Positions 1 through 22,040 of a stretch of 64,000 nt of DNA are shown piece after piece. Where the stretch lies: positions 48,608,001-48,672,000 of the forward strand of contig CM114271.1 of assembly GCA_050084515.1 (NCBI GenBank). The letters are read 5' to 3'. Both the position numbers and the translations under genes were made by a program. Source of the DNA: Blasia pusilla (taxonomy: Eukaryota). The notes under the pieces are model-generated. The model did no database searches, had not been told where the DNA came from, and worked only from the letters and a program-made list of their open reading frames with translations. The stretch's first letter is position 1, and each line of letters opens with the position of its first letter.

Positions 1-350
1 AAGGTACTTCCAGAGGTAGTGTGAGGGCTTGGGGATGAGAGAGTTGGTGGAGAGTGAGGAGTTGACGATCGTGGTGATAGGGTTCCATCACCAATCAAAG
101 GAGACGGAGGACAGGTACCTCATGCAGTGCTCCTTGCTCGCATCGATGAGTTGGAGTAGAGGATTGTTGCTATGACAATGATGCATCTAGTGACAAGCAC
201 GGAGCCGAGAGTAGCTAGTGTGGCTCCAACCTCCAAGCCGTATCAGGATACGAGGGAGGATTATGCGGGTTATGTATAGTACGGCTCAAGTAGAGGATGT
301 TGCATTGGTAACTCATACTGCTAAGAGAGTGATCAAGCCATCAAGAGGTG
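1..350 (+). mobile_element. Degenerate fragment of the Gypsy gag C-terminal/linker region
   Basis: Aligns by eye with 19340-19710 and 9420-9650 (e.g. gagcagaggattgttgccatgac-like and aagccatcaagaggtgggg segments). Confidence 0.7.
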
Positions 351-351
351 G

Positions 352-605
352 GGTACTACTCTATACACATCTAGCATTGTGGGTGGTGTCATCCCTCCAA
401 TATCTCCCAATACATGCTTGTCCGCTGATCCATCTGATCTATCTCCACCTAGAGATATTGATGTATCTAGATGTCATCTTGCAACACTGCAACTACCCGC
501 AGTATTAATTCCTCTAAAGAGATCCAACACTCTTGCACCCTCCTCCAGACAGTGCCACACAACATGTGTGGTATCCAAAGACATCAAGTCTCCACTCCAA
601 ATGCA
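352..605 (-). mobile_element. Inverted fragment of a deleted DNMT-Gypsy derivative (methyltransferase motifs I-II joined to the 3' end of pol)
   Basis: Reverse complement reads VVWHCLEEGARVLDLFRGINT and aligns with 10866-11030. It then reaches tgctagatgtgtatagagtagta, which resembles 15218-15240. Confidence 0.7.
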
Positions 606-607
606 TG

Positions 608-1077
608 ACTATGTCACATCTTATTTCGACGTAGGTAGAGTTCTATCACGTCGACAACATAGAGCGTCAATAGGTTGTTCGGTTGTAACTTTGTTCCGAG
701 ATGTCGGATGAGGTTAGCAACATGTCTGTTGTGTTGCGAACGTCATTTATTGTGATTTACCTATTTTGGTTTAGTCCGTCAGGTGACCCGTAGACCGAGT
801 CAATGGTCACCCGATAACTTGTGCACGCAGGTTACTGTTGGTAGGGCTATTTTTGGCTCTTTCCAAAAGGTATAAGAGGGAGGAAGATGGCTTTCCCAAG
901 CCATCTTTCTCATGTTGGGCCGTTGGAGCACCTCTCTTGTTGTGTGTGAGATAGGACGAGGGTGCTAGCATCTGGATTTCCTGAGAGCACAGGGTGGACG
1001 AGGCTTGATTTGCCGATGTAGATTCATGAGTGGAGTTTTAAGCTGGATGTGCCATTTTTACTACTCTTTATTTTACA
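608..1077 (+). repeat. Partial LTR (3' portion) of the Gypsy group
   Basis: Closely matches 21008-21452 (cacatcttatttcgacgtaggtagag ... ctactctttatttt) and ends in ...ttttaCA. Confidence 0.7.
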
Positions 1078-1592
1078 TGAGAAAGATGCAAGGGGGCAGG
1101 GATTTCGTTGTTTGCAGGTAGGCACATGAGTTGCCTCGGCTGGAAGCCCGTGGAGACGCTAGTTGGCGTTGTGTTTTTTTTTTTTTTCCGTTCAGAAGGC
1201 CGTGGGCGGAAGCGCTGTCCATTTTTTTGCAGATTTTCTTGGTGTGGATTGACGGGGAACAGCAGCAAAGTGTATCGCGCGGTCTGGCAGGAGTGTATTG
1301 ATGGTAGTAGCAGGAAACGTGGGGGAATCGAGAGAGAATTTGAGGTTGAGAAATTGCAGTTGTTCCAAAGGCGACTAGGTATAGGGCGAAGTTGGGCAAG
1401 ATAAGGGCACGAGCACTTTTAGGGTCGCCGCCCTGATTAGGTTGGGGTAGAGTCGCCGGGGTTGATGGAAGTATGGGAGTCAAAGTAGGACAAGGTCACA
1501 AGCCTCGTTAGACGTAGTAGGGCTAGGGGAGGCCAGCTAGGGAGGCGCGCCTTAGGGTCGAATGTGACCAAATTTGCAAAGAAGGAGCAAAG

Positions 1593-4500
1593 TAGCCTCC
1601 CTAACCCCAAACTAAGGAACGGGGAGATCCGGGGTTACAAGTAATCCCGGCCGGTCATTTTTAGAAATTTCCGACTACAGCTAAAAGTTCCCTCGCTGGG
1701 TTTCCGGTGGGTTGGGGACACGTTCAAAATCCTCCTGAACTGGCTGCTTAGGTCGGCTTTGGTCCGGATACCCCACGGCGTGAACGGCAACGGACCTTGG
1801 GCCCTATATCACGTCGGATTTAAATCGTCTCCTCACTACATTTGGAGGAAATCTACGGACGTCCTTTCTAGGTGTCAGAAAACGGGGGCTGGGTGATCTT
1901 TTAATCTGAACCGCCCATGTTACATCCCTAAATATCTTTAGGGATGGGCTACAGCTACTACACCGCTGCGGCTCTCATGAGTCCCGCAGACTCCCGCTTT
2001 TGCATCACTCGGGAGTCGGGGCAGGCGGCAGGCCTGGCAGGGGCCCTACGGAGGGGTGGACGGTGTGGAGACCCCACTCCAGCCCACATTCGAGAAAGAT
2101 TCACATTCGCTCCCGCTGCCTGCAGCCCCGCTCGCGCTCCTTGTTCCGTCGCGTTCAGACTTCTTTGTTCCATCTCGTTCGGCGCTCCGCTGAGGCCGCT
2201 CACCCCCGCTCGTGTTTGTGCACCTTTGCTAGAACCTGCAGCCCCGCTCGTGATTCTCTCTCGCTCCTCCTCCCACTACTCGCCGTTGTTACACCGTTGA
2301 CAGATTTTTGCTGCTCCACATCAGACCCGCCAATTCTTCATTTAGTCGAGCTGAGTTATCTTGGAGATTCTGGACTCTGAAGTGTCTCCGCTCTTGATTG
2401 CCTCACCCTCGCTGCCCGTGGCTCCGTCTTCTTCTTCAAGTCTTGCATTGCTTATGTTTGATGTCGTGCAACCTGCTGTTGTGCAACATTCTAGTCATGC
2501 ATACTCGTGTGGAAGCTTGCGTTCTTGTGATTTCATATTTCGTGAGCCTTGGTGATTTGGAGCCGCTCTTACTATGCGGGTAGAACTCTCTCATAACTAC
2601 TTTGCAGATCAAACTCCCTCACTTAGTCATTGCGATTCTAATCACGCAGATTTTTGCGGGTTCTCGTTTTGGTTGTGTGGCCGATTGGCACCTTGGTGGG
2701 CCTCTCTCTCGCTCTTGCTGCGTAGTCGTGAGGCAGCTCACCCGCACATTGGCTTGCTGTTTTCCTCTTAACCCGTATTTCAGTTTCCTGCTCTCAAGGG
2801 CTTCACATTGAAAGGGCCTTCGCGGTTTTATTCTATTGCTTTTGTGCAGTGGCATTTCTTCCCTTGCATTTGGTTCACAGCAGGGCAGAAATCTTAGGGT
2901 GTTGAGGCTTCGATTTCTGTACTCAGTTGTATACCTCAATGTAGCTCTACACCTATTGTATGAACATATGTGATTCACAACCGCTTGCAAGAAATTATCC
3001 AGAAAGCTCTCATATTCGCTTTCAAGCCATTAACTGTCTACCTTTTACCTTTGTAGTTGTAGCAATGGCCAAAAGACAGAGAACTATGAATGAATTGTTG
3101 TGCAAGGAGGTTCCCCAGGAACTTCCAGAGGTTATAGCTCTGTCAGGATCATCAGACGAGAGGGAAGAACATAGTACATTGGGCAGCAATACATCCTTAC
3201 CTACAAAAAACCGGCAAGATTGGAAAGATGTTTGGTACACGATGTATGATTGGATCACATTTGATTCTTCCACAGGAAAAATCCATTGTAAGATTTGTAG
3301 GGCAGGAAAAGGCAAGAGTGTCTTTGCTAGGGATGGTGTTGTAAACTGTAAGGTCTCTGATTTTACAGATCATGCAAAGTCAAACGAGCATGTAAAGCTC
3401 TCTTGGGCAGCTAACGGAGGTAAGAAATCCATGGCCAAGGCCATAGCTGCATCTAATCAAACCTGTGAGGTAGCTCTCCTCACTTTATTTAGGTGTGCAT
3501 ATTTTCTTGCCAAGGAGGCCATGCCTTTCTCTAAGTTCACAGGTATTCGCAAGTTGATGCTTTCTGTAAATACACCTATTACTAGAGATCTTTACCAAGA
3601 TGAGAAAAGTTGCAGTGAGATGTGTTTTTTCATAAGTCAGGTTTTGCTCAAAAGAACCCTTGCTAGGGTTCAAGCCTCACCATTCTTTGGAATTATGATT
3701 GATGAATCTACTGATATATCCGTGACAGGGCATCTAGTGGTCTTTGCAACCTTCATAGAAGATGGTCAAGCAGAGTGTTGTTTTTTAGGATTGCTTCGGT
3801 GTGAGTCTAAGTGTTCTAATGCTATCACAAGTAGTTTGCTCGAACTACTAAAAGATGGGGGCTAAGACTTTTCTAGAATGGTAGCTTTTGGGTCGGATGG
3901 AGCCTCCTCTATGGTAGGGAGCCAAAACGGGGTTGCTTCACAATTGAAGCTAAAGGTAAATCCATTCATTCTTTCAGTGCATTGTGTTGCTCATAGGACA
4001 AACCTTGCAGCTCTCACAGCTGCTAAAGCAACTAATTGCAAATCCATTTCCATAGAAGTAGATTCCATTTTGAATGCAATAGTAGGATATTTCAAGAGGT
4101 CTTCCAAGAGAAAAGCTGTTCTAGCTTCTCTGCAGGAGAGGTTGAATGACTCCCAAAGAATCATGAAATGATACCACAAGATCCGCTGGTTGTCGCGATG
4201 GCAAGCCGTATCCACCTTATGTGATTCACTAGAATCTGTTTTAATCTACTTTAGGAACATTTCACCTTCTGAAGATTATGGGAATGCTACAAATTTTTTT
4301 GAAAAGTTAAGGTCATTCCAAATGATCTATCAATTATACTTCTTGGCTGATATTCTTTCTATGTTGGCAAACTTGAGCAAGATTTTTCAGTACAAATTTG
4401 TTGATGTAAGTACCATAGGCAATATTGTTAGTTCTGAGATTCCTGCTATTACTATGAATTTTGTGATGGAAACACATGATTTGAATGCATCTACTTTTTC

Positions 4501-5835
4501 AGAGGATACAGGGTATCACATTCTGCTAGACTTTGGACCTCCAGACGGCTATCTAAGACGCTTACAATCCGAAATTAGAGGGAGGAAGTTCCATAGTATC
4601 GACATGATTTGGGACCGCACAGGCAGGGATTTGGAGGCTGCTTTGTTGTTTCAGAAGAGTTATTCTGAGAGTTTTTGTATAGCGCTACAAGATAGATTTA
4701 GAGACAATAATCTTATGGGTGCAATGAAAATCCTGAACCCCTTACACATGCCTTCTAGACAAGTAGGACTCGTAAGTTGGGGATGTAAGGAAATAGAAGA
4801 GTTGTGTGCATATTTTGGATCCGAGTTACCATTGAAGGGGCATTTGCAACCTTCTGTCATAAATTCTGCTGTTGTCAAGCAAGAATTTCAGTCCTTCAAG
4901 TTGATGGCAACAACTGAGTGGAAGGACCGTAACTTCAGGGATCTATCGGCAACGGTGAGTTGGAGTCCATCTTTACAATGTAAGTTTGGAAACTTGCTGG
5001 TGTTGGCCAATGTCGCAAGGGTTCAATGTGTAAGCACTGCAATTTGTGAGAGAGCATTCTCAATTCAGAACATGATAAAGACCAAGTGTAGGAATAGACT
5101 AGGTAGTAAACATTTGGATGATGTTCTCAGAATTGCCTTAGAAGGCCCTACTGTTGATTATGAGGACATGCTTGCTAAATCTGTAGTTCTCTGGAAAACC
5201 TCTGCTAGCTTTAGATACCTGTACGCTAATCCAGAAAGATATCTCTGCCTTCAAGCAAAAGCTGATGATACACCTTCGATTGACTTGTCTTCCTGAAATA
5301 ATCTTTGCATTTTGTTGTAGACTTAGAGCCCCTTCATAATACTTCGAAGTTTGAGATGCCCAAGTATTATAAAGGGGCAAAATCCTTGGCTCCCAACTGG
5401 TTGAGAGGCATGGCCAGGTTCAACTCCTGCCAAGGATTCCTTGAATGTGTATTTTAGTTCTGAAGGTTTAGTTTAGAGGGTAATACTTAAAGGGAGAAGT
5501 CATGAAAAAAAAAGATTGGGAAAGAAGGAGAGTTTTTTTTACCGGTAGTTTTCAAATCAGCCGATTATTGGCCAGACTATTTTTCGGATTTCCAGATAAA
5601 GAACCGCGTAAAATTATAAATATCGGATTTTATCGGACTGAAAAAAAATTACTCTTATTTTTACTCCTCTTTTTAAATCTAAACGGCCACAGCCAAAGAT
5701 CTGTTTTAAAAATCCGAACTGATTTAATATTATCTGGATATTATATGAATAAATTAAAAAAACTCCCCGGACCTTGCCCCAAACTCACATGCATAGGGCC
5801 AGCCCTTGCATGTGAGTTCGGGGTTAGGAAGGCTG
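1593..5835 (+). mobile_element. hAT-superfamily DNA transposon
   Basis: Imperfect 21-bp terminal inverted repeats: tagcctccctaaccccaaact (1593-1613) versus reverse complement cagccttcctaaccccgaact (5815-5835). They flank a hAT transposase. No intact 8-bp TSD (gagcaaag vs cgccatag). Confidence 0.7.
3065..5296 (+). pseudogene. hAT transposase (ZNF862/C17orf113-like) with two in-frame stops
   Basis: N-terminal CxxC..H..H zinc finger (HCKIC), IDESTD, GSDGAS, HCVAH (CxxH), IRWLS and CERAFS motifs. The three ORFs share one frame, broken by TAA at 3863-3865 and TGA at 4169-4171. Confidence 0.9.
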
Positions 5836-5874
5836 CGCCATAGGGACGCAAGTGGTTCCTGTCATAAGGAAAGA

Positions 5875-7287
5875 TGTCGTGCGCATACATATCGCTACAC
5901 AACATACATCGCTCGTCACATCTACACCACACAACACCGATCTTCCCCACAGACGGTGTCGTGTCGAGAGTCTTTCTTCGAGCAAGGGCGGGCCTTCTAG
6001 CTGCGGTAGATGCGGTCGATGCAAGGTGAACTCTCTAATAAGTTCTCCTTTTTCAATACAAAATTATGATGTACACTCTCCATTCTCTCACGACAGGTAT
6101 CACAAATGGAAGTGCCGAGGCGATCACTTCTTCGTAACATCGGACCCCGAAATTCCTAACTATAAAATCCCTATAAACTATTTTACGTTTATACACGAGG
6201 AAGATAGCACAACTAGTGTTAAACCCTACTTGACCAGGCCTATTGACATCCATGGATCGCTATATAAGGACATACAAAGTACAATCCCATGTCCTTCCAT
6301 ATGTGACGATAGGAAGAATCACCGGAGTTGGAGATTGCATGACCTGATTCATGAACGCCTCCCCAAAGTGATAAACTAAATAGCGAGTGAACCAGTGCCT
6401 ATCTACAAAGAGTACCTTGACATGGTAAGGATTGAGGAAAGGAAAGTCGGGCACAGCTCGTGCTCCACCCTTATCCATGCTTGACACACATTCTCTACTC
6501 TCCTCAAGAATGGGTTTTGGCGGAGTTATTCTCCCAAGAGGGGTAATCCACTCTCATTGGGGAAGTAACAAGCCAAAACATCAACTATTTTTGTATGACT
6601 AAACTCCTCTACGGTGACAAACCTCTCATCCCCACACACACACACCACACTCTAGAAATCTCTCATAGAATAGACCATAGTCAAGTTACTCTCCCAAGAG
6701 GGGTAATCCACTCTCATTGGAAGAGCAAGCAATCCCAAAGCCATACACTCAAGAGAGACACGAGAGACTCAAGATGTGGAATAGAAGATGATGAACCCTT
6801 GAAGGTCCCTCCTCTTTATATACTCACAAGGGATCCACAAGAGTACGAAATAGAGCTTATCTTATCTTGTGCCACATGGCTTCCTCTCAAGGCTTAGCCA
6901 ATCATATTTTGAGACAAGTAGATTTTCTCTTATCTCTTCCAAAATATCCTCTTTTACCCACATGATATTTTCCAAATTACCCCAACTAACCTAGCCACCA
7001 ACCAAGATTACTTTTGTTTTTCATTAAAGCAACTACTTTACTTTTATAAAGTCATCTTTTATTTATTACCTCCTTTTCCTAAAGTTGGGCCCGCATAAAA
7101 GAGGCACCATAAAGAGGTTTAAACATAAGAATTTTGTTTTTCTAAGCCAATTTACTTAATACTAATGAAACTCTATCTAACACTTAATGACAAAGGAGTT
7201 TACACATTGGTTGATTTTACTATACGATAACGGGTCGATCCACACATGTACAAAAATAAACTCATACATATACATGGAGATCACACA
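5875..7287 (-). repeat. Inverted copy of the first ~136 bp of the DNMT-Gypsy LTR, split by a solo-LTR insertion
   Basis: 5875-5956 plus 7230-7287 form the reverse complement of 15309-15444, with about 3 mismatches. Confidence 0.85.
5957..7229. mobile_element. Solo LTR (~1.27 kb) of an unrelated family
   Basis: Termini TGTCGT...ACGATA (ACGACA expected). The site acgg is duplicated at 5953-5956 and 7230-7233, and the insertion cleanly interrupts the repeat above. It has an internal direct repeat ctcccaagaggggtaatccactctcattgg at about 6530 and 6690. Confidence 0.75.
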
Positions 7288-8054
7288 ACTCAGCTAAGGA
7301 GTGGGGAGTGTGCGCACGGATCAAGGAAGTACTTGGCAGGTCCAAGGAAGTGGGGTGGAGTGAAGGTGCATAGGGCACCGTGCAAAGAAGGAACCTAGTA
7401 GAGTTGGGACAGAGTAAGCCCAGTTACCAGGTTGGGAGGCGGATGTGGTGGAACTGCTTACGTAGTTGGGAAAGCTGAGTTACGCCAAGAGTTTGCAACG
7501 GGATGTTGCTGATGGAGTATGAGTATGATGAGGCCGATGGGTGGTCTATATCTATTGACGGGGGGTTTGACGTGTGTTCAAGGAGGGTGTCATTTTACGG
7601 AGGTTGCTGTACCACATGGAGGAGTGAGTGCTGACGATACAGCAGGTTGGAGGGCGTGATCAGGTTACCCATTCGAGTCCCTTTTCCCGCACTTGTCGTG
7701 TGTGATTGAGAGTGCTGGGTATCGGGTAGTAGCTGGTGCTAGATGGGTGCAGTGATGGTGACGAGTGTAGATTCTTTTCATGTGTAGCATGTTGGTGGAT
7801 ATCTGGCGGTTGCCGAGTAGGGGTCGCGTGTATGACCCGAGAGTGTGTCGCTAGGTTAGGTGAGTGTTGGGGAGGCTCATGGTGAGCCCGAGTGTTGAGC
7901 GTCGTGAGGCCGGGTATGTCATCACGGGATTGACGTTAGCATAGGTGAGCTAGTGAGGCGTGTGGGAGACTCTCGGTGAGTCTGAGTGCTTGAGTGGGTG
8001 AGACAGGGTTTGTCATCACGGCGTTCTTCCAGGGTTCGGAAGAACGGGGTAGTG

Positions 8055-9500
8055 CGAGCAGTAGTAGTGGTGGTGTGACATGCAGTGGAGTAAGATACCG
8101 AGGGGTTACCAGTGAGGAGCTCTCGCGATATCCATCCGTGACTGGATCATCATCATCGACACGGTCCGAGTGACGAGATCACCGATGAGACAGAGATGAG
8201 TACTTGGCGGTGAGATGGACGACATGGGCCATCGGGGCATGCGTCGTTTCTCGGGTGCAGTGGGCACCATCGACTAAGATGATTTCATCCAAGAGTTCGA
8301 CACATGGTGCGACTTCCAGGAGATACGAACCCCGACACGGTTCAACCTTTCATGGCATGGAAGGGGTTGTTCCAGCACTTGGAGGGTCCTCCAATGGATG
8401 ACTACATGGAGTTTTGATCACTATATTCAGTAGAGATCGATACCTGGAGGATGTATTGGGCTCCAGGGTATGTGTCCACTAGTGGTCGCGAGGCATATGA
8501 TGGGATTGTGAGAGGAGAGAGACCCACACCATCAGCCCGGAGACTAGATGGAGAGGAGGACAGTGACATAGGCGATGTGGTAGAGACCTCTGGTGGTAGA
8601 GGGCCACCCAGCTTCAGCCTCACAGTGGAGTTCTTCCGACAGTTGGGGAAGAGCTATCAGGGCGTACGCACCGACAAGCTGAAGAGTCTACAGGATTTTC
8701 AGCGACAATCGGGTGAGAGTCTGAGAGAGGCCTACACATGCATGAGGAGGCTGATTATTGCTACGTTTGGAGTGAGTGAGGCGCACTCAGTCCAGTATTG
8801 GTACGGGGTTCTGGACCGAGAACTACGGAGGAGAGTCCGAGATGGAGTGCTGATTCACACAACGAAGCCCACATTGAAGGTGGTCTTTGAGTTGTCTGAG
8901 CGTATTGAGCTCAACATGAGTGAGGAGCAGGTAGTGACCGCTGGATTTTCTCGAGAGTCGACGGGTCCACGAGCGGCGGTGACCCCACCGGTGCCACAGC
9001 GAGCACCAGTACCACGGGAGCGGGCCAGTGTGCCTAGAGAGCAGGGCGTGTACCGTGAGCCTATGAGGCAACGACCCGCACCTACATATTTTGCCCAGCA
9101 GGGACCGATATGGTCTTGTTGGACGTGTGGAGGGGCCCATAGGCGAGAGAGCGCCCACAAAGATGGGAGAGGACCACGGCGCCTCCGATTGCGCGCAGAC
9201 CCACAGAGGATGGCCCTCACTCATAAGACCGGTGTGACCATTGCCACGTAAATGGTCACACTAGGGATAGATGTTTTGACCTTCGCCGAGGGGCACGTCA
9301 GGTAGGCCGAGGGCCTGGGGCGGCCGCCCCGGGAGGAGGTGGGGAGTTCTTCCGGGCGTGGTGGTAGAGGACCACCACCGGCCGAGGAGATGGAGCAGAG
9401 CACCGAGCCGGGCGCTTCTCTCACACGATCGATCGGGTTGAGCAGAGGATTGCCGCCATGACGATGATGCGGCTTAGGAAGGCACGGAGCTGCGAGCAGC
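8055..9500 (+). pseudogene. gag: gag, frameshifted, with two zinc knuckles
   Basis: Capsid-like FQRQSGESLREAY segment, CWTCGGAH knuckle near 9117, and CDHCHVNGHTRDRC near 9233-9275. Start is approximate, inferred from the second copy (ATG near 18115). Confidence 0.8.
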
Positions 9501-10099
9501 TAGTGTGACTCCAGTCTCTACCTCTTACCCTGACCCGGGTGAGGATCTCTCCAATATGGGATTCATGTGTAGTGGAGCCCAGGTTGAGGCAGCTGGAGTG
9601 GTGACTCGGGGTGCTGCGAGAGGCATCGAGCCATCGAGAGGTGGAGTTGAGATTGACCCACAAGAGGGGACCGATGGGCGGCAGGCCAGGGTTCCACAAT
9701 CGTTCACATTGTCGGAGGCACTACACACACCATCGATGGTGCCTCGACGACCAGCGGTGCCTACAGATCAGGCACCTACGTCGACGTCACAAGGAGTTGG
9801 AGTGACAACTCCTATGCCGGCTCGGGTGGATTCAATGTCGACTATAGTGTTGGAGGTGGCCACTAGAGTGAGTCAGACTCCGCTATTTTCCGCCTTAGAG
9901 TTGGCGATGTTGGGAGTTGGACCAGCTTGAGGTGTTCCGGTTGGCCGCCACGTTGTGTGAGCGTGGAGAGATGACTGCTTCTTGTTCAGAGGTAGTTGAG
10001 GAGATGGTGGACTTGTCCTCAGAGCCGTTGCTTGGAAGGTTCCCCACAGAGTCATGGCATGCGGCGGCGGCAAAGTTGGTAGATATGCCAGCTCGACCG

Positions 10100-10560
10100 G
10101 CCATAGAGCGAGCAGTGGTGACACCTGGAGTAGTGTTACTGGATAACCGAGCTGGAGTATTTCACTTGGTTAGTCCGACGGGGATAGTATACCACCCGCA
10201 GCGCGTCCTACTTGATTCGGGAGCGCAACCCTTGATGTTAGGGAAGGCGGCGTGTTTAGCGTTGGGGTTATGGAAGGCCGACATTGAGCCTTGTCCCTTC
10301 CAGATAAAGACCTCGATTGGGGGCGTATCACCCACTCAGTATATGACTCGACAGGAGATTGTTGTGAGAGTTCAGCCAGAGCATGCGACGGATAGTGCTA
10401 TGGTGCGTACACATGCAATTACGACACCAGCTGAGTACGATGTGTTGGTGGGGAGTACAGTGTTATATCCCCTAGGATTCATCCTTGACTTATGGGAGGA
10501 GACCGTTGCTTATCGGCCAGGATGGCGGTCAGGTGACGGTCGGATGAGTCAATTACCCGT
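10100..10560 (+). pseudogene. Retropepsin aspartic protease domain
   Basis: VLLDSGAQPLML active site near 10205-10240 and YDVLVG downstream motif. Confidence 0.9.
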
Positions 10561-10930
10561 GCAGTTTGCGGGACGAGATAGTCGATCACGAGGCGAATGT
10601 GTGACCACGTTGGCGGCTTTCACAGGTAGTGTTAGCTGGCCAGGAGAGTTGTTGGAGGGGAACGCACATGCGGAGGATGTCCCAGTAGCGGATAGTCCCA
10701 CGGAGAGATTGGCCATGACGGGTGTCTCTTCCCATGTTAGCGATGCCTCTTCACCATTATGGGGTACGACTCGAGAGCTACAGAGGAGTGTCGACGACCT
10801 CGTGAGGCAGGTGTGGAGTCATGTTTTTATCCCAGAGCAGCGAGAGTCACGTGGCGATCGGGCTCTTGGAGTGGAGACGATGACCCCACTAGATACCACA
10901 CCGGTTGTGTGGCAGTGCCCAGAGGAGGGT

Positions 10931-11880
10931 GTTAGGGTGTTAGATCTCTTTGGAGGGATTAGCACCGGATTGGCTGCAGTATTGCAGGCGGGCATACGGG
11001 TGCATCAGTACCTTTATGTGGAGAGAGATGAGACCGCGCGGCGAGTATCATTACGTCACATGGCGAGATTGGTCTAGAGGTATCCTGAGTTGTTGTCGGT
11101 ATCTGCAGTACGGGGATACCAGCATATGCTACCCGTCGACATATCTTTGTGGGGGCGCAGAATCTGGATAGAGTTGGCACCATTCATTTGGTGATTGCTG
11201 GATGGCCATGTCAGGGTCATTCATCTGCTGGCCGAGGATTTGGATTGCAGGATCCGAGGTCAGGGATGTTTTGGGAGATGCTGCGAGTAGTACGACACTT
11301 GCAGCAGAGTCAGATATGTTCTCCTGCTAACATTTTGGAGAACGTGCCGTTGTTGGGAGATACTCGTGCACGTGTGATGATGAGTGTACATCAGGTGAGG
11401 TCCTGGTGGGGACAGGCTGTGTTGTTAGATGCAGCGAGAGTTGGGTCACGTGCCCATTGTCCACGACTGTCGTGGACGAACTTGATACCATCAGAGGTAC
11501 TGAGTCGAGCCTACAGTGGAGTCCAGAGAGCACCACATGTCACGGTGGATGTTATTTTGGACTCAGGGCGTCGATCTCAAGTGGTGACACGCGATGATAG
11601 ACCACCGTTGGCCATGGCCAATAGGGTGGGGGAGTTGAGGGCAGCCTTACCTACGTTGGTGAGCTTCCCAGCATCCCATGCCTTTCGTCAAGGAGGGCCA
11701 GGCATGATTTGGGATGAGGTGACCGGAGTATTGGAGGAGCCTACAGCAGATGAGCGCGAGCGCGCCATGGGGTTCACTACCGGTACTACGGCGGTGCCAG
11801 GGATGACTGAGGCATCACGGAGACAGGTGTTGGGGCAGGCAATGGACCTCTACTGTCTCACATGGATAGTCGGCCTAGGT
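10931..11880 (+). pseudogene. DNMT3-like C5-cytosine DNA methyltransferase domain within the Gypsy pol region
   Basis: Ordered motifs: I VRVLDLFGGISTG, II YLYVERD, IV LVIAGWPCQGHS, VI ILENV, VIII SRAHCPRLSWTNL, IX ERERAMGF, X RRQVLGQAMD. One TAG at 11075-11077 and one frameshift near 11150. Confidence 0.93.
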
Positions 11881-12289
11881 ATGGTGAAAGCAGAGACGGA
11901 TGATGAGTGTCATCCATGCCGTCACGCCCACGAAGTTGGACCACCTTGCCCTGTGGTCAGACATGCATTGGTCGGGGCGAGACGAGGAGAGATAGGCACC
12001 CATGGACTTCCTGGGACGTCGTTCGAGCAGAGAGTGCGAAGGCGGCTAGAGTAGCACATGTTCATTTTTTGGATGTGGAGCATGGTGTAGGAGGTCAGAG
12101 TGGAGTGGCTGTTGCGGAGGTGGCTAGGGTTGCTACATAGCAACCAAAGCCAGAGGTTGCGTCCTCTCCGAGTGAGGTCACGATGGAGACTTGGGAGCAT
12201 GTGATAGGTCTCAAGTTGATAGGAGTAGAGCGACGGCGAGTTCATAGGTTTCTAAGAGGGCATGTCAGTTGTTTTTCCTTCAGTATGAG

Positions 12290-13000
12290 AGACTTAGGTA
12301 CGCTGAAGGGTCCCGCGATACGGATTGAGTTGGCTAGTGATACGCCGATCTTTCGTCGACCCTACAGGTATTCTGATATGGAACGAGCCTTGATTGAGAG
12401 CAGGTGTCAGGACTTTGGAGACAGGACTTGTGGAGTTGTCACATGGGGAGTATGCATCTGCCACAGTCATGCCGGCAAAGAAGGATATGTATGGCAATTG
12501 GACGAATAGGCGGATGTGTGGAGATTACCGTCCTATCAACCCTGCAGACGAGGTCGATCGGTATGCCATGGTTACTCTGAGGAGATCTTTGATGCGGTAG
12601 GGCATGCAAAGATCTTGATTTTTAGATCTCCCGTCTTTGGCTATCATCGCCTTCCTATCAAAGTTGGAGGACAAGGAGAAGACAACATTCTCGGGGATAG
12701 ATCGGTTTGGGAGAGATTGCTTGTATCGGTGGCGGTTCTTACCATTTGGGTTGAAGAACGCGCTGCAGAGTTTCGTAGAGTGATGGATAGGATTATGGTG
12801 GCTTGGATTTTTGTGCGATGTTACATAGATGATATTCTTATCTTGATTCCACGGTTGAGGAGCATGAGCGACACTTGGAGGAGGTGTTTGGCGATTGCGA
12901 TTACATGGACCAAGTTACATCCAGCAAGTGCAGATTCTTTCAGAGCAGATTGAGTACTTGGGACACACCATATACCCGAGTGGGTTAGGCGTTCAGCAGA
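12290..13000 (+). pseudogene. Gypsy reverse transcriptase with multiple frameshifts
   Basis: PIFRRPYRY, RMCGDYRPIN, LPFGLKN and CYIDDIL (about 12819-12840), followed by IEYLGH. Confidence 0.93.
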
Positions 13001-13204
13001 CGAAGGTAGAGGCTATTGCGCAGATTCCACGCCCCTACAGATGTGAGTCGAGTCCGAGCATTTCTTGGACAGGCGAACTTCTATCGACGGTTTGTCAAGG
13101 GTTTTAGTGCGATCGCAAAGTCTTTGACCTTGTTGACGAGACTTGATCAGGTGTGGTTGTGGGGAGATGATCAGGAGCGAGCATTTTAGGAGCTCAAGGA
13201 CAGG

Positions 13205-13615
13205 TTGACGTCCTCACCCATTTTACAGAGACCGGTTAGGGGTCGCCCATTCCAGTTACATACGGATTGGAGCATGTTGGGTCTAGGAGCAGTGCTTACT
13301 CAGAGGGATGACGAGGAGAGGGAGTTTGTTGTGGCTTACGCGAGTCGATCGAACAACATTGCAGAGGCGAAGTACATCTCCTACGAGGGAGAGTGCTTGG
13401 CTGCAGTGTGGGCGGTGGCACATTTTAGGTGCTATTTATTTGGCAACCCTTTCACACTTATCACTGATCATCAGCCGTTGAAGTGGTTGATGGAGTCCGA
13501 CAAGCTTACGGGAAAGCTTGCCAGGTGGGCTCTATTACTACAGGAGTATGAGTTTGAGGTGGTTCATAGGCCAGGTCGGCTGAACCAGGATGCGGATGGG
13601 TTGAGTCGTAACCCA
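13205..13615 (+). pseudogene. Gypsy RNase H domain
   Basis: FQLHTDWS, LGAVLTQ, VAYASRS, ECLAAVWAV, ITDHQPL, LARWALLLQEY and NQDADGLSR. Confidence 0.93.
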
Positions 13616-13999
13616 TGTCCGAGTCAGAGAGACGTCACGGGAGCTCGATGGCACGGAGAGAGTGATGAGGAGATGGTGCCCGGTTGGCATGCATCTACCT
13701 ATCTTTGTTGGTTGACTATGGGTGTCACCCACAGCGATGACTCCAGTGGTGGGGTTGGATGATGAGTCTTTGGATCCGGAGGTTAGTGAGGAGGCGACAG
13801 GTGGTCGTGATATCCATGACGATGTGGAGGTTGTGGACTTCTTGCGCACTGGCGTCATTGCGAGTACAGTGAGTGCTAGGGAGCGGGATCGGATCCTACA
13901 GAGAGCCAAGAGGTTCACGTGGGAGGGGACTCACATTTTGCGGGTATGGGGAGATGGTAGGATACGAGTGGTACCTCATCCTTCCCAAATGAGCACGTA

Positions 14000-15040
14000 G
14001 TGCGACATGCCCATGAGGAGTTGGGACATTTCGAGTAAAGCGATTTACGACTTACTCCATGTTCGTGATTGGTGGCGCGTCATGCATACCTTGGGGTATA
14101 GCGATTTGGGCGATATATGGTATGTAACAGAGTGCGAGCATCCTTCAATGCTCCCACTCCGCAGTTACATCCTTTGCCGATTATGGGTTTAGGTTATCGG
14201 TGGAGTTTAGACTTTGCGGGACCTTTGCCATTGACAGGGCGTCATCATAGGTACGTGTTAGTCATGGTGGAGCATTTCTCCAAGTGGATAGAGTTGGTGG
14301 CACTACCGAGACAAAGCAGCGAGGGAACAAATTTTATGCGTTTCTAGATCGTGTGCTTAGTCACTTTGGTGCACCGGCGGAGGTGTTGACTGACCAGGGT
14401 ACCGAGTTCAGGGGAGAGTTTCAGGCCTTGTGTGATCAGGCGCTGATAGATCACCGCACCACGTCCAGGGATCATTGGATTGGCGGAGAGAGCGGTACAG
14501 ACGGTGAAGAGAGGATTGCGCAAGTATGGCTTGCAGCGGGGAAAGTTGAGGGAGTGGGACCTACAATTGCCATGGTTGGCTATGGGTTATCGCTTTAGTC
14601 GGCAGGCATCCTTGGCGTCATTTTCACCGTACTTTTTGCTCTTTGGGAGAGAGCCAAATTTACCTGCAGCAATTCGACGTGACATGGCGGAGGTGTTAGA
14701 TCTTGATGATCCAGATGTGTGGGTGCAAGCATGTTCTCAGAGGGCAGAAGTTTGTCGTAGAGTTATGCCTATGGCCTTTGAGAACTTAGCTATTGCCCAA
14801 CATAGAGATACATTGAGGTACGCGACCATTCGTGGAGGAGGTTATTGTCCAGGGATTAGGAGGTTTCATCCCGGAGATTACGTGTATTTACAGCAGGCGA
14901 CATCCACGACGCTAGATGTCACTGCAGGGCGCACTATCCTACGTGTGTGCGAGGTATTACCGACCGGAGTCCTCATGTTGGAGGGACGAGATGGTATGGT
15001 TTGGAAGGATCATGTGCGCAATTGTGCGCCATGTCATCTT
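14000..15040 (+). pseudogene. Gypsy DDE integrase
   Basis: H..H..CxxC remnant, WSLDFAGPLP, EHFSKW, LTDQGTEF, GLAERAVQTVK and FSPYFLLFGR, with frameshifts. Confidence 0.93.
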
Positions 15041-15094
15041 CCGAACATAGATGGGACGGTGGATCCAAGCTTGGCGTGGTACTGCAGCTTGAGG

Positions 15095-15233
15095 TGTATG
15101 TTGTGCGGATCTGCGAGGGGTGGCCACCATGTTGGTATGTGATGGTTGTTCTCGAGGGTGGCATATGTCATGTCCTGACCCCCTCTTGATGTGGTTCCCA
15201 CGGGGACGATGGATGTGTGCGAGATGTGTATAG
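15095..15233 (+). pseudogene. PHD finger at the integrase C-terminus
   Basis: Across two frameshifts it reads CMLC...MLVCDGCSRGWHMSCLTPPLDVVP..RWMCARC, a C4-H-C3 pattern. Confidence 0.85.
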
Positions 15234-16115
15234 GGTAGTAGGTCATGTCGAGAGATGTGATATTTTCTATCTCGGAGTTAGGGGATCCAACCGCCACTAG
15301 GGGGCGGTTGTGTGATCTCCATGTATATGTATGAGTTTATTTTTGTACATGTGTGGATCGACCCGTGTGTGGGGAAGATCGGTGTTGTGTGGTATAGATG
15401 TGACAAGCGATGTATGTTGTGTAGCGATATGTATGCGCACGACAACTGTCACATCTGAGTAGCCGATAGGCCGAGATCTATCGTGGATAGGGCGTAGGAG
15501 CCAGCCGACTATCTTGAGTGTAACTTTGTCCCACAGTGTCGGATGAGGTTGAGGATAGGTCCATTGTGTCAGGAACGTCGTTTATGACGACTTTTATGTT
15601 GAGGTCTTTTACATCCGGGTGACTTGTTGACCAGGTCACCAGCCGGAGAAGCAGGGTTACTCAAGCATAAGGAGATACAGTTAATGAGGGGTGAAGTGCC
15701 GGAAGCAGCGAAGCTGAGGTGGGGGATGCGGTTGCATAGGGCGTCGTGCCCTCGGACGGAGTATAGGAAGGGAGTGACGGGTTTAGGAGTGGTATGGATA
15801 GTAGGGTCGGGCTACGTGGTGAGACGAGACGGGTTGGGACGGATGTGGTAAGGGTTGAATGTGGTGAGCAGCTACATGGTTGGTAGACCACCACAGATGT
15901 AGTTAGACATGGACTATAGTAGGAAGTTGGTAACTATGGTTGTTGAGATACATGGTTGATTCATGCTATGTAGTTGAAACGTTTTTCGAGAGACTTGATG
16001 TATTCGCAAGCTAGCGTGGTGAGATTCACGATGAGCGTGGCTAGTACTTTGTTGACTGGGGGCGGGACGAATGATCCACATCGATAGTCTACGACAGATT
16101 GGTAGTATGTCGATG

Positions 16116-17599: not shown

Positions 17600-20500
17600 A
17601 ACGGGAAGTTTGCATGACGAGAGGTTTGACATGAGGTCGAGGAGAGTGTTGTGTTGTGGAGGTGTCATACCACATGGAGGAGTGAGTGTTGACGGTGCAC
17701 TAGATTAATGGTTGGCATGATCAGGTTATCCATTCGAGTCCCTTTTCCCGCACTTGTCTTGTATGATTGAGAGTGTTGGGTATCGGGTAGTTGTTCATGG
17801 TAGATGGGTGTAGTGATGGTGATAAGTGTAGACTCCTTTTATGTGTATCATGTTGGTGGATATACGACGGTTTCTGAGTAGGGATCGTGTGTATGACCTG
17901 AGAGTATGTCAGTAGTTTAGGTGAGTTAGTGGGAGGCTCATGGTGAGCTCGAGTGTTGAGTGTGCGTGAGGCTAGGTGTGTCATCACGGGATCCACATTA
18001 GCGTAGGTGAGCTAGTGAGGAGTGTGGGAGACTCTCGGTGAGTCTGAGTGCTTGAGCGGGTAAGACAGGGTTGTCATCACGGCGTTCTTCCAAGGTTTGG
18101 AAGAACGGGGTAGTATGAGCAGTAATAGTGGTGTGACACGGAGTGGTGTGAGGTTTCGAGAGGTTTTGAGCAAGGAACCACCCCGACTCCCATCAGTGGT
18201 TGGATCGTCATCACTAGATAGTGGGTCTGGTGATGAGATTGTAACCGGGACGGTGATACGTGGAGAAAGATGGACGGCATGGGCCATTGGGGCATGCATC
18301 GTTTCTCGGGTGCGGTAGGCACCATAGATTTAGATGACTTACTCCAAGAGTTCGACACGTAAGATACGGATCCCTACACAGTTCAACCCTTTTATGGCAT
18401 GGAAGGGGTTGTTCCAGCACTTGGAGGGTCCGCTGATGGATGACTACATGGAGTTTCGATCTTTATACTCTATAGAGATCGATGCCTAGAGGGTGTATTG
18501 GGCTCCAAGGTATGTGTCCACTAATGGCCGCAAGGCGTATAATGGGATAGTGAGAGCAGAGAGACCTTCACCATCAGCCCGAGGACTAGATGGAGCGGAT
18601 GGTAGTGAGAGTGGTGAGGTGGTAGAGACCTCTCATGGTAGAGGACCACCGAGTTTCAATCCTACAATGGAGTTCTTCTAACAGTTGGGGAGGAGCTACC
18701 AGGGCGTGCGGACCGACAGGTTGAAGAGTCTACAAGATTTTCAGCGGAGATCAAGTGAGAGTCTGAGGGAGGCGTTCATGCACATGCGATGGCTCATCAT
18801 TGCCACATATGGGGTGATTGAGGCACAATCAATGTAGTAATGGTACGGGGTGCTAGATGAGGAGCTACATAGGAGAGTTGGGGATGCGATGTTGCTTCAC
18901 ACGGCAAAGCCCACATTGAAGGTGGTCTTCGAGTTGTCTAAGCGGGTATAGCTCAACATGAGTGAGGAGAAGGTGGTGACCACGGGATTTTTACGGGATT
19001 TGACGGGTTGACGAGTAGGAGTAGACCCACAAGTGTCCTAACATGCACCATTACCACGGGAGCGGGTCGATGGGCCCAAAGAGCAGAGCGGGTATCGTGA
19101 GCCGATGAGGCAACAACCCGTATCGACATATGTTTCCCAGCAAGGACCAGGGTTGGCTTGTTGGACGTGTGGTGGGTCACATAGGCAGAGGGACTGCCCA
19201 CCACATGGGAGAGGGTCACGGACGCCTCCGATTCCTCAGGAACCATAGAGGACCACGACCACATGGTCCACCACAGTTGCTGTGTGAGCATTGTCACCGA
19301 TATGGTCACACTAGGGATAGGTGTTACGATCTTTGCCGGGAGGTACGTCCAGAGGTAGGCAGAGGACTTGGGGGCAAGAGAGTTGGTGGAGATCGAGTGG
19401 TGGATGATCGTGGTGGTAGAGTGCCGTCGCTTGTCATAAGAGATGGAGGACATGCACCTGATGCAACGCTCCTACGCGCGTCAATCAGTTGGAGCAGAGG
19501 ATTGTTGCCATGACGATGATGTAGTTGCAGGCAAGCGCAGAGCTGAGAGTGGCAAGTGTGGTGCTAGCCTCCATATCTTACCATAATGCTAGTGAGGATT
19601 TTGCGGGGATGGGATTTATGTGTAGTGCGGCTTAGGTTAAGGCTAGTGCGGTGGTGATTCAGGGTGCTACGAGAGTAACCAAGCCATCAAGAGGTGGGGT
19701 CGAGATTGACCCACAGGAGGGGACCGATGGGCGGGTTCCCCAGTCGTTCATATTTTTGGAGGCACTTCATACACCGTCGATGGTGCCTCGACGACCGGTA
19801 GTACCCACGGATGGGACAAGTGCCTCGACGTCACGAGGAGTTGGAGAGACAACTCCTATGTCGGCTTGGGAGGAGCCAATGTCGACCATGTTGTTGGAGG
19901 TGGCCACTAGGGTCAGCCATGCTCCATTGTTTTCTGCCATGGAGTTGGCGACATTGGGAGTTGGACCAGTGAAGGTGTTCCGGCTGGCCGCCACATTGTG
20001 TGAGCGTGGAGAGGTGACTGCCTCTTGTTCAGAGGTAATTGAGGAGGTGGTGGACTTGCCCTCGGAGCATGTGCTCGGGACGTTTCCCACTCAATCATGG
20101 CATGTTGCGGCGGCAAAGTTGGTAGATATGCCAGCTAGGCCAACGATAGAGCGAGCTATAATCACACTAGGTGTTGTGTTGTTGGATAACCGAGCAGGTG
20201 TTTTTTGCTTGGTTAGTTCCACATGTACGGTGTACCACTCACTGTGCGTCTTACTTGATTCAAGAGTGCAACCCTTGATGTTAGGGAAGGCGGAGTGTTT
20301 GGCGTTGGGTTTACGGAAAGGCGACGTTGAGCGTTGTCCCTTTCAGAAATTTTCATATCGGCCAGGGTGGCCATCAGGTGATGGATAGGTGAGCCATCTA
20401 CCGGTGCACTTTGCAAGAGTTGGCGGTGGTCGACCACGTGAGGATGCGGTGACCACGTTCGCAGCATTCACAAGTGGTGTTCGCTGATGAGGAGGGTTTG

Positions 20501-21452
20501 GGGAGAGGAGCACACATTTGGAGGATATTCCTGTAGCGGATAGTCCCACGGAGAGACATGCCAGGGTGGGTGTCTCTTCCCATGGTGCAAAGCTTCTTTA
20601 TTGTTTTCGGGGATGAGCGTTTTGATGCGTGGAATGCAGACGAGCTTGTGAGGCATGTGCGGAGCAGTGTCTATGTTTGGAGCAGGGTATGAGAGTGTTA
20701 GATCTCTTCAGAGGGATCAACACCATGGTTTGCTATAGTGTGGCGTTGTTGCGAGGATGATGGCACTGATGGTGCTAGATGTGTACATGATAAGAGATCT
20801 TGTTGGGGACATATGTGTGTGCTATCTAGAGTTAAGGGGACCCAACTGCGAGGTAGGGGGGCGGTTGTGGGGTTCCAATGTATATGCGTGAGTATGTTTC
20901 ATTTATGTGTGGATCGACCCATATGTTGGGGAAGATCAGTGTTGTGTGGTATATAGATGTGACCAGCGATGTGGGTTGTGTAGCGATGTGTATGCGCATG
21001 ACAACTATCACATCTTATTTTGACGTAGGTAGAGTTCTATCGCGTTGACGACGTAGAGCGTCAACGTGCTGTTCGGGTGTAACTTCGTCCCGAGATGTCG
21101 GATGAGGTTGGCAACAGGTCTGTTGGGTCGGGAACATTGTTTATGGCAATTTCCCTATTTTGGTTTTAGTCCGTCAGGGGATCCGTTGACCGAGTCAACG
21201 GTCACCCGATAACTTGTGCACGCAGGTTATCGTTGGTAGGGCTATTTTTGGGGGAAGAGCCTTTTGGCTCTTTCCAAGCCATCTTTCTCATGTTGGGTTG
21301 TTGGAGCACCTCTCTTGTTGTGTGTGAGATAGGACGAGGGTGATAGCGTCTAGATTTCGTGAGAGCACAGGATGGACGAGGCTTGATATGCCGATGAAGA
21401 TTCACGAGTGGAGTTTTAGGCTACGTGTGCCGTTTTTACTACTCTTTATTTT
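17600..21452 (+). mobile_element. Second, internally deleted non-autonomous copy of the DNMT-Gypsy group
   Basis: 17610-20345 is colinear with 7555-10303 (leader, gag, protease; many stops). It keeps only DNMT motif I (GMRVLDLFRGINT, about 20686-20725), then jumps to the 3' UTR, PPT (about 20855-20865) and LTR (20866-21452). Confidence 0.88.
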
Positions 21453-21454
21453 GT

Positions 21455-21600
21455 TGTGGGGTCCCAGTGTATATGCATGAGTATGTTTCATTTATGTGTG
21501 GATCTATCCGTATGTTGGAGAAGATCGGTGTTGTGTGGTATGTAGACATGACCAGCGATGCGGGTTCTGTAACGATGTGTATGCGCACGACAACTATCAT
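21455..21600 (+). repeat. Additional LTR 5' segment in tandem after the LTR
   Basis: Diverged repeat of 20866-21010. Confidence 0.8.
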
Positions 21601-21609
21601 CTGACTATG

Positions 21610-22040
21610 TCTGCTCCAAGACACAAGCATTCCTCCACGCGTGCTTCACGAGCTTGTCGAACTCCTATGCAAATCAATGCTCGTACCCAAAATGGTAAAG
21701 AGGCCTCTACACCATGAGAATAGACACCCACCTTGGCATGTCTCTCCGTGGGACTATCCGCTACCAAGATGTCCTCCGCATGGGTGCTAGTGCTCCTCTC
21801 CAACAACTCTCCTCACCAAATAATCACTACGTGTGAATGGTGCCAACATGATCACGACATCACCTCGTGAACCACCACTACGCCTTGCAAACCGCACAAG
21901 TAAATAACTCACTCTTCCATCACGTGATCGCCATCCTAGCTGATAAGAAACCGCCTCCTCCTAGAAATCAAGGATGAAACCCAGGGGGTACAACATCGTA
22001 CTCCCTGCCAACATATCATACGGCTCTATTGATGTAGTAA
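21610..22040 (-). mobile_element. Inverted degenerate fragment of the protease-DNMT linker
   Basis: Reverse complement encodes HAEDILVADSPTERHAKVG and matches about 10430-10820. Confidence 0.75.

Follow-up and report, generated by a model that had tools for sequence, protein, structure and literature searches.

We examined a 64,000-nucleotide stretch of Blasia pusilla DNA (contig CM114271.1 of assembly GCA_050084515.1, positions 48,608,001 to 48,672,000 of the forward strand), referred to below as the window. Positions 7556-15586 almost certainly represent, in identity as well as in architecture, a dead copy (copy A) of a retrotransposon of Gypsy type that belongs among the streptophyte Gypsy-DNMT3 elements, i.e., those carrying a DNMT3-like C5 cytosine methyltransferase (DNMT). 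Alignment of intact relatives by tblastn gave the domain order gag, aspartic protease (PR), DNMT, reverse transcriptase (RT), RNase H (RH), integrase (IN) and PHD finger (Table 1; handles beginning with P are related proteins, and those beginning with L are related loci). Stop-to-stop open reading frames (ORFs) of 7290-15444 were also scanned with Pfam, and the two methods together recovered PR, RT, RNase H and a DDE integrase, as in a Gypsy-order pol. Two other identities were rejected: that of a chromovirus, as there was no chromodomain and a PHD finger stood in its place, and that of a DIRS element, as rve and Integrase_H2C2 were present and the Pfam scans gave no phage-integrase (tyrosine recombinase) match.

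Copy A is dead, since its reading frame switches repeatedly (its nine high-scoring segment pairs with L001 lie in frames 1, 3, 2, 1, 3, 1, 2, 3 and 3) and the RxR motif of its DNMT has decayed to RAHCPRL (at 11449). All copies of the family in the window are likewise dead, being about 75% alike and frameshifted, with both PHD fingers damaged. The left boundary is less clear than the 7290 given in an earlier note on this DNA: homology with a second copy (copy B) begins only at 7556, and at 7289 there ends a copy, in reverse complement, of the 3' repeat of the element itself. In self-BLAST, 7556-10304 aligned with 17615-20347 (77.7% identity over 2785 nt between copies A and B), and at higher sensitivity 7556-8300 aligned with 17615-18355 at 80.7%. 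Self-BLAST revealed no pair of long terminal repeats (LTRs) in copy A or copy B, i.e., no direct repeat shared by the two ends of either. A tRNA-iMet-type primer-binding motif was not found near the element (two matches elsewhere, with 5.6 expected).

Table 1. Features of the window, in order of position
Feature	Position	Strand	Evidence
Family fragment: gag end, inverted PR/DNMT-linker piece, 3' region	2-1074	+	Self-BLAST
306-aa ORF with zf-C17orf113 zinc finger	2945-3862		Pfam (E = 1.9e-11)
Reverse-complement B repeat, left part	5869-5961	-	93.5% to reverse complement of 15359-15450; seven-copy alignment
Reverse-complement B repeat, right part	7230-7289	-	60/60 nt identical to reverse complement of 15307-15366
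5' leader of copy A, common to copy B	7556-8214	+	Self-BLAST
Copy A, gag-like region with decayed CCHC knuckle (9117-9134)	8215-9283	+	tblastn with Marchantia P0003 residues 1-350; motif position; CCHC Pfam match in relative P0025
Copy A, aspartic protease region (LLDSGAQ, 10208-10228) and linker	10070-10900	+	tblastn with P0003, P0025 and L001 ORF1; Asp_protease_2 in P0025 and L001 ORF1
Copy A, DNMT3-like C5 cytosine methyltransferase	10940-11890	+	PF00145, 35.8 bits; nearest solved structures DNMT3A/3B/3C; motif coordinates
Copy A, in-frame TAG then CAACCA, between DNMT ORF and RT ORF	12138-12146	+	Same site and context in L001-L004
Copy A, reverse transcriptase (YIDD, 12822-12839), over three frames	12144-13035	+	tblastn with P0079, P0076 and L001 ORF2
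Copy A, RNase H	13190-13762	+	PF17917 (E = 2.1e-35); PF17919 (E = 7.3e-27)
Copy A, integrase zinc-binding domain and DDE core, frameshifted	13997-14600	+	Partial rve matches 14102-14347 and 14251-14598; tblastn with P0073
Copy A, integrase C-terminal region: beta-rich SH3-like domain and linker	14600-15094	+	ORF 14450-15142 78% identical to P0073 over 97% of query; model of relative P0080
Copy A, PHD finger (C4HC3) and pol stop codon, frameshift-split after first Cys pair	15095-15233	+	PF00628, 29.3 bits; translations
Copy A, purine run (TAGGGGGCGG), then ~150-nt B repeat (15307-15453; begins TGTGTGAT, ends TGTCACA)	15295-15453	+	Seven-copy alignment; sequence
Copy A, 3' region common to copy B	15454-15586	+	15212-15586 against 20768-21145, 75.5%
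Copy B, internally deleted (gag-PR, then 3' end); no DNMT, RT, IN or PHD	17615-21607	+	Self-BLAST; tblastn
Inverted PR/linker fragment of another copy	21602-22047	-	10435-10849 against 22021-21602; P0003 residues 705-778 on minus strand
Helitron remnant: Helitron_like_N, PIF1 helicase, Pif1 2B domain; several ORFs	29985-35589		Pfam (Helitron_like_N E = 3e-56)
Reverse-transcriptase element: RVT_1 (46803-47819) in plus-strand ORF run	45442-48725	+	Pfam (E = 1e-28)
Copy C: RT-RH-IN-PHD, exits window before DNMT; PHD 60737-60874	60734-63931	-	~75% identity; Pfam; tblastn

The methyltransferase ORF of copy A (11089-12054) matched PF00145 with E = 7.8e-9. Its landmarks lie at 10940 (motif I), 11200 (PCQ), 11332 (ENV), 11755 (RERAMGF) and 11824 (QVLGQAMD), and a frameshift near 11078-11088 breaks the domain. 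Motifs I, IV, VI, VIII, IX and X follow one another in that order, which makes this a non-rearranged methyltransferase of the DNMT3 type. When the DNMT of Marchantia P0003 was compared with solved structures, DNMT3A, DNMT3B and DNMT3C were the best matches (E = 1.7e-8), against 1e-3 for HaeIII and 2.6e-3 for NtDRM. The domain is in frame with PR in L001 ORF1 and in P0235. PWWP or ADD reader domains gave no Pfam match in P0003, P0004 or L001 ORF1. Of 156 DNMT regions of relatives, 153 kept the catalytic Cys (the other three being gaps) and 155 had the Glu-Asn characteristic of motif VI. Separately, a 1053-residue protein (P0066) has an N-terminal PHD finger, a PCIF1_WW match and a DNMT 36% identical to that of the window; RT and IN are absent from it, and it could be a PHD-DNMT gene of the host, or a domesticated one, akin to the element's DNMT.

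The earlier note also described a C4-H-C3 PHD finger ending the pol of copy A and recurring on the minus strand, and both fingers proved to be there. In copy A, CMLC starts at 15095 and the remainder (CDGCSRGWH..C...WMCARC) occupies 15138-15233 in another frame, with the stop codon at 15231-15233; the translation of 15093-15230 matched PF00628 at 29.3 bits (E = 9e-7), above the gathering cut-off of 24 bits. In the minus-strand copy (copy C), the translation of 60737-60949 scored 35.4 bits (E = 1.1e-8). The two fingers are damaged in different ways: a frameshift separates the first Cys pair of the copy A finger from the rest, and the copy C finger has Gln at the His position and has lost its last Cys. 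The C4HC3 pattern was intact in 117 of 126 PHD-bearing relatives, and in 98 of 108 in a replicate set. The proposal that the finger takes the place of the chromoviral chromodomain held up, since it ends the integrase and PF00385 was absent from the Pfam scans of window ORFs and of relatives, as well as from the precomputed domain rows of the listed relatives.

The finger of P0073 was compared with solved structures, and the best 60 PDB matches had E values of 2e-16 to 1e-6. They comprised fingers of MLL3/4, CHD4, DPF2/3, KDM5A/B PHD1, WSTF, KAT6A/B, ATXR5, PHF12, PHF21A, UHRF1, BAZ2A/B, AIRE and RCO1, and those of ING, BPTF or TAF3 were not among these 60. Most of the matched fingers recognize an H3 tail whose K4 or R2 is unmodified. 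In the family motif, C..GWH..CL.PPL..P.G.W.C..C, there is no cage Trp two positions ahead of the His, a residue that readers of K4me3 have. By sequence class, the finger would thus belong with readers of the unmodified H3 tail, a predicted binding that we regard as a lead. P0080, a type-1 protein (types are defined below), was modeled with AlphaFold (mean pLDDT 62.5). The model comprises the integrase domains and a beta-rich C-terminal domain at 309-359, behind which a linker of low confidence (361-380) leads to the finger. Foldseek aligned about 370 columns of this model with the integrases of PFV and Ty3, to which the element's integrase is closest; all of its matches were integrases, and none bore on the finger. 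As those columns cover the PFV/Ty3-like integrase, the PHD finger is an extra C-terminal appendage behind the low-confidence linker. In another model (m5657bce35c29), the integrase C-terminal barrel plus finger had its best Foldseek matches in UHRF1 and in the Tudor-PHD cassettes of PHF1 and MTF2, a possible structural analogy to a two-part reader. In one type-1 polyprotein, P0037, the C-terminal finger has diverged so that it fails Pfam PHD, with the Cys/His spacing kept.

Searching with the DNMT ORF gave 72 longer proteins, the best from Marchantia polymorpha and Calypogeia fissa (65-70% identity), with others from Sphagnum and Closterium. The integrase tail (14450-15142) gave 292, the best one at 78% and those of Marchantia at 75-80%, and these also included proteins of Klebsormidium nitens, Haematococcus, Chromochloris and Volvox. 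PF00628 was present in 112 of the 120 that were listed of these 292, and a chromodomain in none of those listed. Judged by identity, the closest named relatives are the liverworts Marchantia and Calypogeia. A Coleochaete scutata transcriptome encodes a 1083-residue RT-RH-IN-PHD ORF (P0076) that is 70% identical to the integrase tail, and an IN-PHD protein of K. nitens (P0087) is 51% identical; a DNMT-bearing polyprotein of K. nitens was not among the proteins retrieved. Marchantia P0074 aligns both to the DNMT part and to the IN-PHD part of copy A.

Intact relatives carry the two domains on one element, as the earlier note had supposed. P0235 is a single ORF of 2811 residues with DNMT at 1380-1481, then RT, RH, IN, and PHD at 2765-2808. 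In L001, ORF1 (976-5082, 1369 residues) contains the aspartic protease and PF00145, and ORF2 (5086-8226, 1047 residues) contains RVT_1, RNase H, Integrase_H2C2, rve and, at residues 990-1034, PHD. A metagenome scan with P0093 as the query found no relatives; with the query alignment A1 it found 80 loci, many of them decayed or rearranged. Of the 40 with enough flanking sequence, 25 had DNMT upstream and PHD downstream of RT (not 25 independent elements, since several loci are near-duplicates), nine had DNMT only, five had PHD only and one had neither.

We classed the retrieved proteins with phmmer domain probes into type 1, with DNMT before RT (this includes the window and ORF2-like RT-RH-IN-PHD products), and type 2, in which the order is RT-RH-DNMT-IN-PHD and some 250 residues often lie beyond it. 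The type-2 order accounted for 77 of 126 complete pols. Among the hits of two IN-PHD queries, which do not select for DNMT, the methyltransferase was present in 101 of 104 judgeable polyproteins (97 of type 2 and four of type 1, with three lacking it); 30 further ORF2-like proteins could not be judged and were left out of the 104. When 1.84 billion representatives were searched exhaustively by HMMER for the window's integrase tail, 1606 matches had E <= 1e-3, 779 had E <= 1e-10 and 265 had E <= 1e-30, and in the proteins new to this search the finger was present in 108 of 115 and DNMT in 37 of 38 judgeable cases. In a FastTree phylogeny of the IN-to-PHD region (196 rows; quick, unrooted and without a Gypsy outgroup), one clade with SH-like support of 93 held 39 of 45 type-1 or ORF2-like rows and none of 111 type-2 rows. 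Coleochaete and Calypogeia fell inside it, with Monoraphidium, Chromochloris, Tetrabaena, Pleodorina, Volvox and Haematococcus outside; the three DNMT-less polyproteins were on the type-2 side. As far as these protein comparisons go, the PHD-DNMT pairing appears near-constant across the clade, with a streptophyte branch that would be organized as gag-PR-DNMT, leaky TAG and RT-RH-IN-PHD, and a chlorophyte branch organized as RT-RH-DNMT-IN-PHD, often with an added domain of methyltransferase fold.

Some features of the chlorophyte-type proteins stand apart from these results. P0051, P0056, P0123, P0145 (Volvox), P0120 (Chromochloris) and P0114 have RT-RH-DNMT-IN-PHD plus a C-terminal domain of about 230 residues. 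Its model (pLDDT 86-95) matched class I SAM-dependent methyltransferases in Foldseek (MnmM, FtsJ, METTL5, KsgA and a type I restriction-modification subunit, E about 1e-4). There were also DPxxGxG and SPWF-like motifs and a sub-threshold Pfam match to the D12 N6-adenine methylase (E = 0.014), and on this modeling the element might encode, in this domain, a second DNA methyltransferase. In 63 of 101 type-2 DNMT domains, the Pro-Cys of motif IV reads Glu-Cys (GWECQDL), with the catalytic Cys kept. A G-patch domain lies between DNMT and integrase in some chlorophyte-type polyproteins (P0062, P0045).

In L001 and L002, ORF1 and ORF2 are in the same frame and are separated by one TAG (5083-5091 and 4661-4669 for TAG plus sextet). 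The sextet that follows is CAG TTA in L001, CAA TCA in L002, CAA CCA in L003, CAA CTA in L004 and CAA CCA in the window. The site is homologous in all five, and all five junctions fit UAG-CARYYA (four of 61 locus rows plus the window), a hexamer expected once in 512 at equal base frequencies. The other 57 rows, mostly decayed or of other subfamilies, are without it, and 11 of them have TAG or TAA followed by CCATCA adjoining RT. Passages of PMC5382211 describe UAG-CARYYA as the type I read-through signal of tobamoviruses, and we infer that the stop codon of these elements may be read through in the same manner. The predicted RNA fold 3' of the TAG was unexceptional (z = -0.93). In the literature on read-through with CARYYA we found no case of an LTR retrotransposon; de Mendoza et al. 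(2018) was not searched for it.

We estimated dN/dS by the method of Nei and Gojobori. Between L001 and L002 it was 0.059 for ORF2, 0.12 for DNMT (332 codons) and 0.027 for the integrase core; for the PHD finger, pN was 0.10 with synonymous sites saturated. Over six pairs of four loci, the raw pN/pS of the finger (0.10-0.44) tracked that of the whole of ORF2 (0.11-0.46), these ratios being upper bounds because pS is saturated (0.6-0.95). By these comparisons, DNMT and PHD are both under purifying selection in the relatives. Three RNA-seq runs of the same species label gave 215-249 reads per run on 7200-15700, from about 6-12% of each run. Most reads were 95-99% alike with fixed differences and lay only partly on the stretch, with depth reaching about 9 over 12.9-15.7 kb; in nearly all, the first mate was on the minus strand, i.e., sense RNA in the usual stranded libraries. 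We read these as low-level transcripts of related copies, which do not prove expression of copy A.

DNMT3 in streptophyte Gypsy elements has been published (de Mendoza et al., 2018; PMC5890265) and is restated in passages of PMC12344493 and of a preprint (10.64898/2026.05.21.726589). As described in the parts of PMC5890265 covered here, KnitGypsy-Dnmt3 shares with the present family a Gypsy-type pol, a non-rearranged DNMT3-like domain within the coding region and purifying selection on DNMT. Its DIRS-like split direct repeats, described there as A-coding-B-A-B, were seen in the related metagenome loci L021 and L008, and the K. nitens protein P0087 is of the same clade. The host here differs in being liverwort-like, the best named matches being Marchantia and Calypogeia at 65-80%. 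PHD is not mentioned in the main text or one supplementary file of PMC5890265, the figures, where a PHD finger could be drawn, lying outside this coverage; the same supplementary file has no mention of PF00628, KnitGypsy or Marchantia.

According to passages of PMC6673714, chromodomains direct integration in chromoviruses. The present elements resemble chromoviruses, as portrayed there and in the preprint 10.64898/2026.05.21.726589, in having a histone-reader domain at the integrase C terminus that presumably tethers it to a chromatin state. They differ in the reader, a PHD finger taking the place of the chromodomain, and in the predicted mark, here an H3 tail that is unmodified or lacks K4me3 and there H3K9me. 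The parts of the same preprint that we covered present as new the EpiLTRs of Cymbomonas and Euglena, LTR elements with DAM, DNMT and a chromodomain. The likeness lies in an "epigenetic toolkit" of DNA methyltransferase and histone reader on one LTR element, to which the chlorophyte-type relatives add a third domain, the class I SAM-methyltransferase fold behind the PHD finger. The EpiLTRs differ in that their DNMT is DNMT4-like and lies at the 3' end of pol, with a chromodomain, whereas here a DNMT3-like domain lies in ORF1 or between RH and IN and is accompanied by PHD; the preprint text uses "PHD" only in "PhD fellowship". PHD fingers are a common accessory domain of transposons, including Chlamydomonas Gypsy elements (PMC9940879; PMC8557442; preprint 10.1101/2021.11.30.470311). 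The passages of these three sources do not describe DNMT together with PHD, and in Gypsy-7a_cRei the legend of PMC9940879 puts PHD before INT, unlike the order found here, and lists no DNMT. More generally, a description of DNMT and PHD on one element was not found in the text of the literature searched. Animal DNMT3 also combines a DNMT3-type catalytic domain with a PHD-type finger of the non-K4me3 class. Its ADD domain belongs functionally among domains that read H3 without K4me3. Here the finger is a plain single PHD, not an ADD, and sits on the integrase, not beside the methyltransferase.

Intact relatives in the window's lineage thus have an ORF1 for Gag-PR-DNMT3-like and, in the same frame after TAG-CARYYA, an ORF2 for RT, RNase H, a three-domain DDE integrase, a linker and the PHD finger. 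We consider the following explanation, taken as a whole (architecture, leaky stop, PHD tether and separate modules), to be reasonably likely. Most ribosomes would halt at the TAG and yield Gag-PR-DNMT, and a minority would read on to make the full polyprotein. Because IN-PHD would be made only in the read-through fraction, DNMT would be produced in Gag-like amounts and IN-PHD in small amounts. The PHD finger would act as the chromatin tether of the integrase in the chromodomain's place, for which we put the chances a little above even. It would bind the N-terminal tail of H3 lacking K4 trimethylation and so steer insertions away from active promoters; a specificity for H3 unmethylated at K4, predicted from sequence, falls slightly short of an even chance. 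Since its catalytic residues are kept and it is under selection, the DNMT would methylate cytosines during the life cycle of the element, the target being either new cDNA or insertions or host DNA. The two modules would be co-selected across the clade while acting as separate proteins in the window's lineage. DNMT ends ORF1 and PHD ends ORF2, past a stop codon and more than 1300 codons away. Reader and writer are hence not fused into a single unit, and the comparison with DNMT3-ADD drawn in the earlier note fails in that sense.

Several observations tell against this account. At 15 of the 40 evaluable metagenome loci one or both domains are missing (most look rearranged or truncated), and near-duplicates reduce the weight of the other 25. 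P0093 and P0235 have one continuous ORF instead of the TAG junction. The reader class assigned to the finger rests on sequence likeness and on the specificities of the matched proteins; chlorophyte-type fingers have an acidic cluster before MLLCD that streptophyte-type fingers lack, and the specificities of the two may therefore differ. The window is uninformative about insertion preference because its copies are dead and about 75% alike. Finally, the near-constancy of the pairing could mean a tighter coupling than "separate proteins" conveys.

Such coupling would mean that the PHD finger guides the element's own DNMT, as ADD does for animal DNMT3, within an uncleaved polyprotein or a complex, and that DNA is methylated where the finger binds, e.g., at the element's own fresh insertion. 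In its favor are the co-occurrence (101 of 104 judgeable polyproteins in one set and 37 of 38 in the other), the lack of an ADD or PWWP of its own in the element DNMT and the membership of the finger in the non-K4me3 class to which ADD functionally belongs. In the chlorophyte-type order, moreover, DNMT lies directly before IN-PHD, and a DNMT-IN-PHD fusion protein is conceivable. In the window's lineage, however, the two domains belong to different translation products with a stop codon and PR, RT, RH and IN between them, and such domains are normally parted by protease processing. The position of DNMT varies between branches while PHD stays on the integrase, which fits an integrase function for the finger, and we regard the coupled arrangement as improbable. 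We give about the same low weight to the idea that the finger does not read histones at all, being a structural zinc module for integrase multimerization or a binder of host factors or nucleic acid, with DNMT independent of it. PHD-like fingers with non-histone partners do exist, streptophyte-type fingers are without the acidic cluster, and the finger of P0037 is degenerate, failing Pfam with its Cys/His spacing kept. Yet a canonical C4HC3 with the P.G.W.C..C ending is conserved in 117 of 126 relatives, it matches bona fide histone-binding fingers with E values down to 2e-16, and it occupies the position of the chromodomain that targets chromoviruses (in passages of PMC6673714). The chance that the PHD and DNMT matches are accidental, or come from fragments of neighboring host genes outside a retroelement, is negligible. 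The Marchantia annotation does split the pieces into separate "genes" (P0003, P0074, P0078), but in relatives both domains belong to uninterrupted ORFs in which they share the frame of PR or of IN, their Pfam scores exceed the gathering cut-offs, the finger recurs in a second window copy, and P0074 spans both parts; we therefore rejected this possibility.

Relative to the known DNMT of streptophyte Gypsy elements, what goes beyond the texts covered is its near-constant pairing with an integrase-borne PHD of non-K4me3 type, a modest new detail, together with the different position of DNMT in the streptophyte and chlorophyte branches and the TAG-CARYYA junction of the streptophyte branch. Retrotransposon-encoded DNMTs are a recently recognized route by which transposons engage the host epigenome. 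If the pairing, the Gag-type output of DNMT and the non-K4me3 finger hold, they lead to testable hypotheses on safe-haven integration and self-imposed methylation. Such questions are open to experiment, as Marchantia, where the closest named relatives occur, is a genetic model for which chromatin maps exist. A bolder possibility, which we think doubtful, is that PHD and DNMT form an ancient co-selected read-and-write module of one green-lineage Gypsy clade, the finger picking H3K4-unmethylated chromatin and DNMT methylating the new insertion or its surroundings. Were this so, the chlorophyte branch could act as a single DNMT-IN-PHD protein at the integration site, and the element would write its own chromatin state rather than await that of the host.

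The window itself is ordinary, with old dead copies in a transposon-rich stretch. Within it, copy A alone shows DNMT and PHD together, since copy B has lost both to an internal deletion and the window ends before the DNMT of copy C is reached. The dense clustering of family copies, which the earlier note took to fit its inference on chromatin context and self-methylation, is not specific: the same 64 kb holds the Helitron remnant, another RT element and the zf-C17orf113 ORF, and an identity of about 75% marks the copies of the family as old. Since the window is a general transposon graveyard, the clustering is no evidence for targeting. The ORF run at 45442-48725, near which Pfam found no LTR-type domains, is probably a non-LTR retrotransposon, and the zf-C17orf113 ORF is possibly transposase-derived.

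Copies B (20864-21010 and 21453-21607) and C each contain two B repeats in the same orientation, and in the window only B...B was seen, not A-coding-B-A-B. The reverse-complement B repeat ends 266 nt upstream of copy A and has 1.27 kb of unrelated DNA (5962-7229) between its two parts, with about 8 nt common to both junctions; this 1.27-kb stretch has no clear terminal inverted repeats. A 1-kb repeat present in two copies of opposite orientation (24969-25972 and 62545-63548, 94% identity) gave no Pfam match, and its second copy interrupts the RT of copy C. Inverted protease/DNMT-linker pieces at 433-600 and 21602-22047 adjoin 3' repeats of other copies, which suggests nested or rearranged insertions within the same family. 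The coding strand of the family copies is G-rich and C-poor, with GC skews of +0.22 in copy A (8215-15233), +0.29 in copy B (17615-21450) and +0.09 in copy C (60737-63931); the skew was +0.11 to +0.17 in the intact relatives L001, L002 and L014, and about 0 in L021 and L067. The observed/expected ratio of CpG was 0.75-0.82 in family copies as against 0.38-0.68 in neighboring repeats, the lowest value (0.38) being that of 45442-48725.

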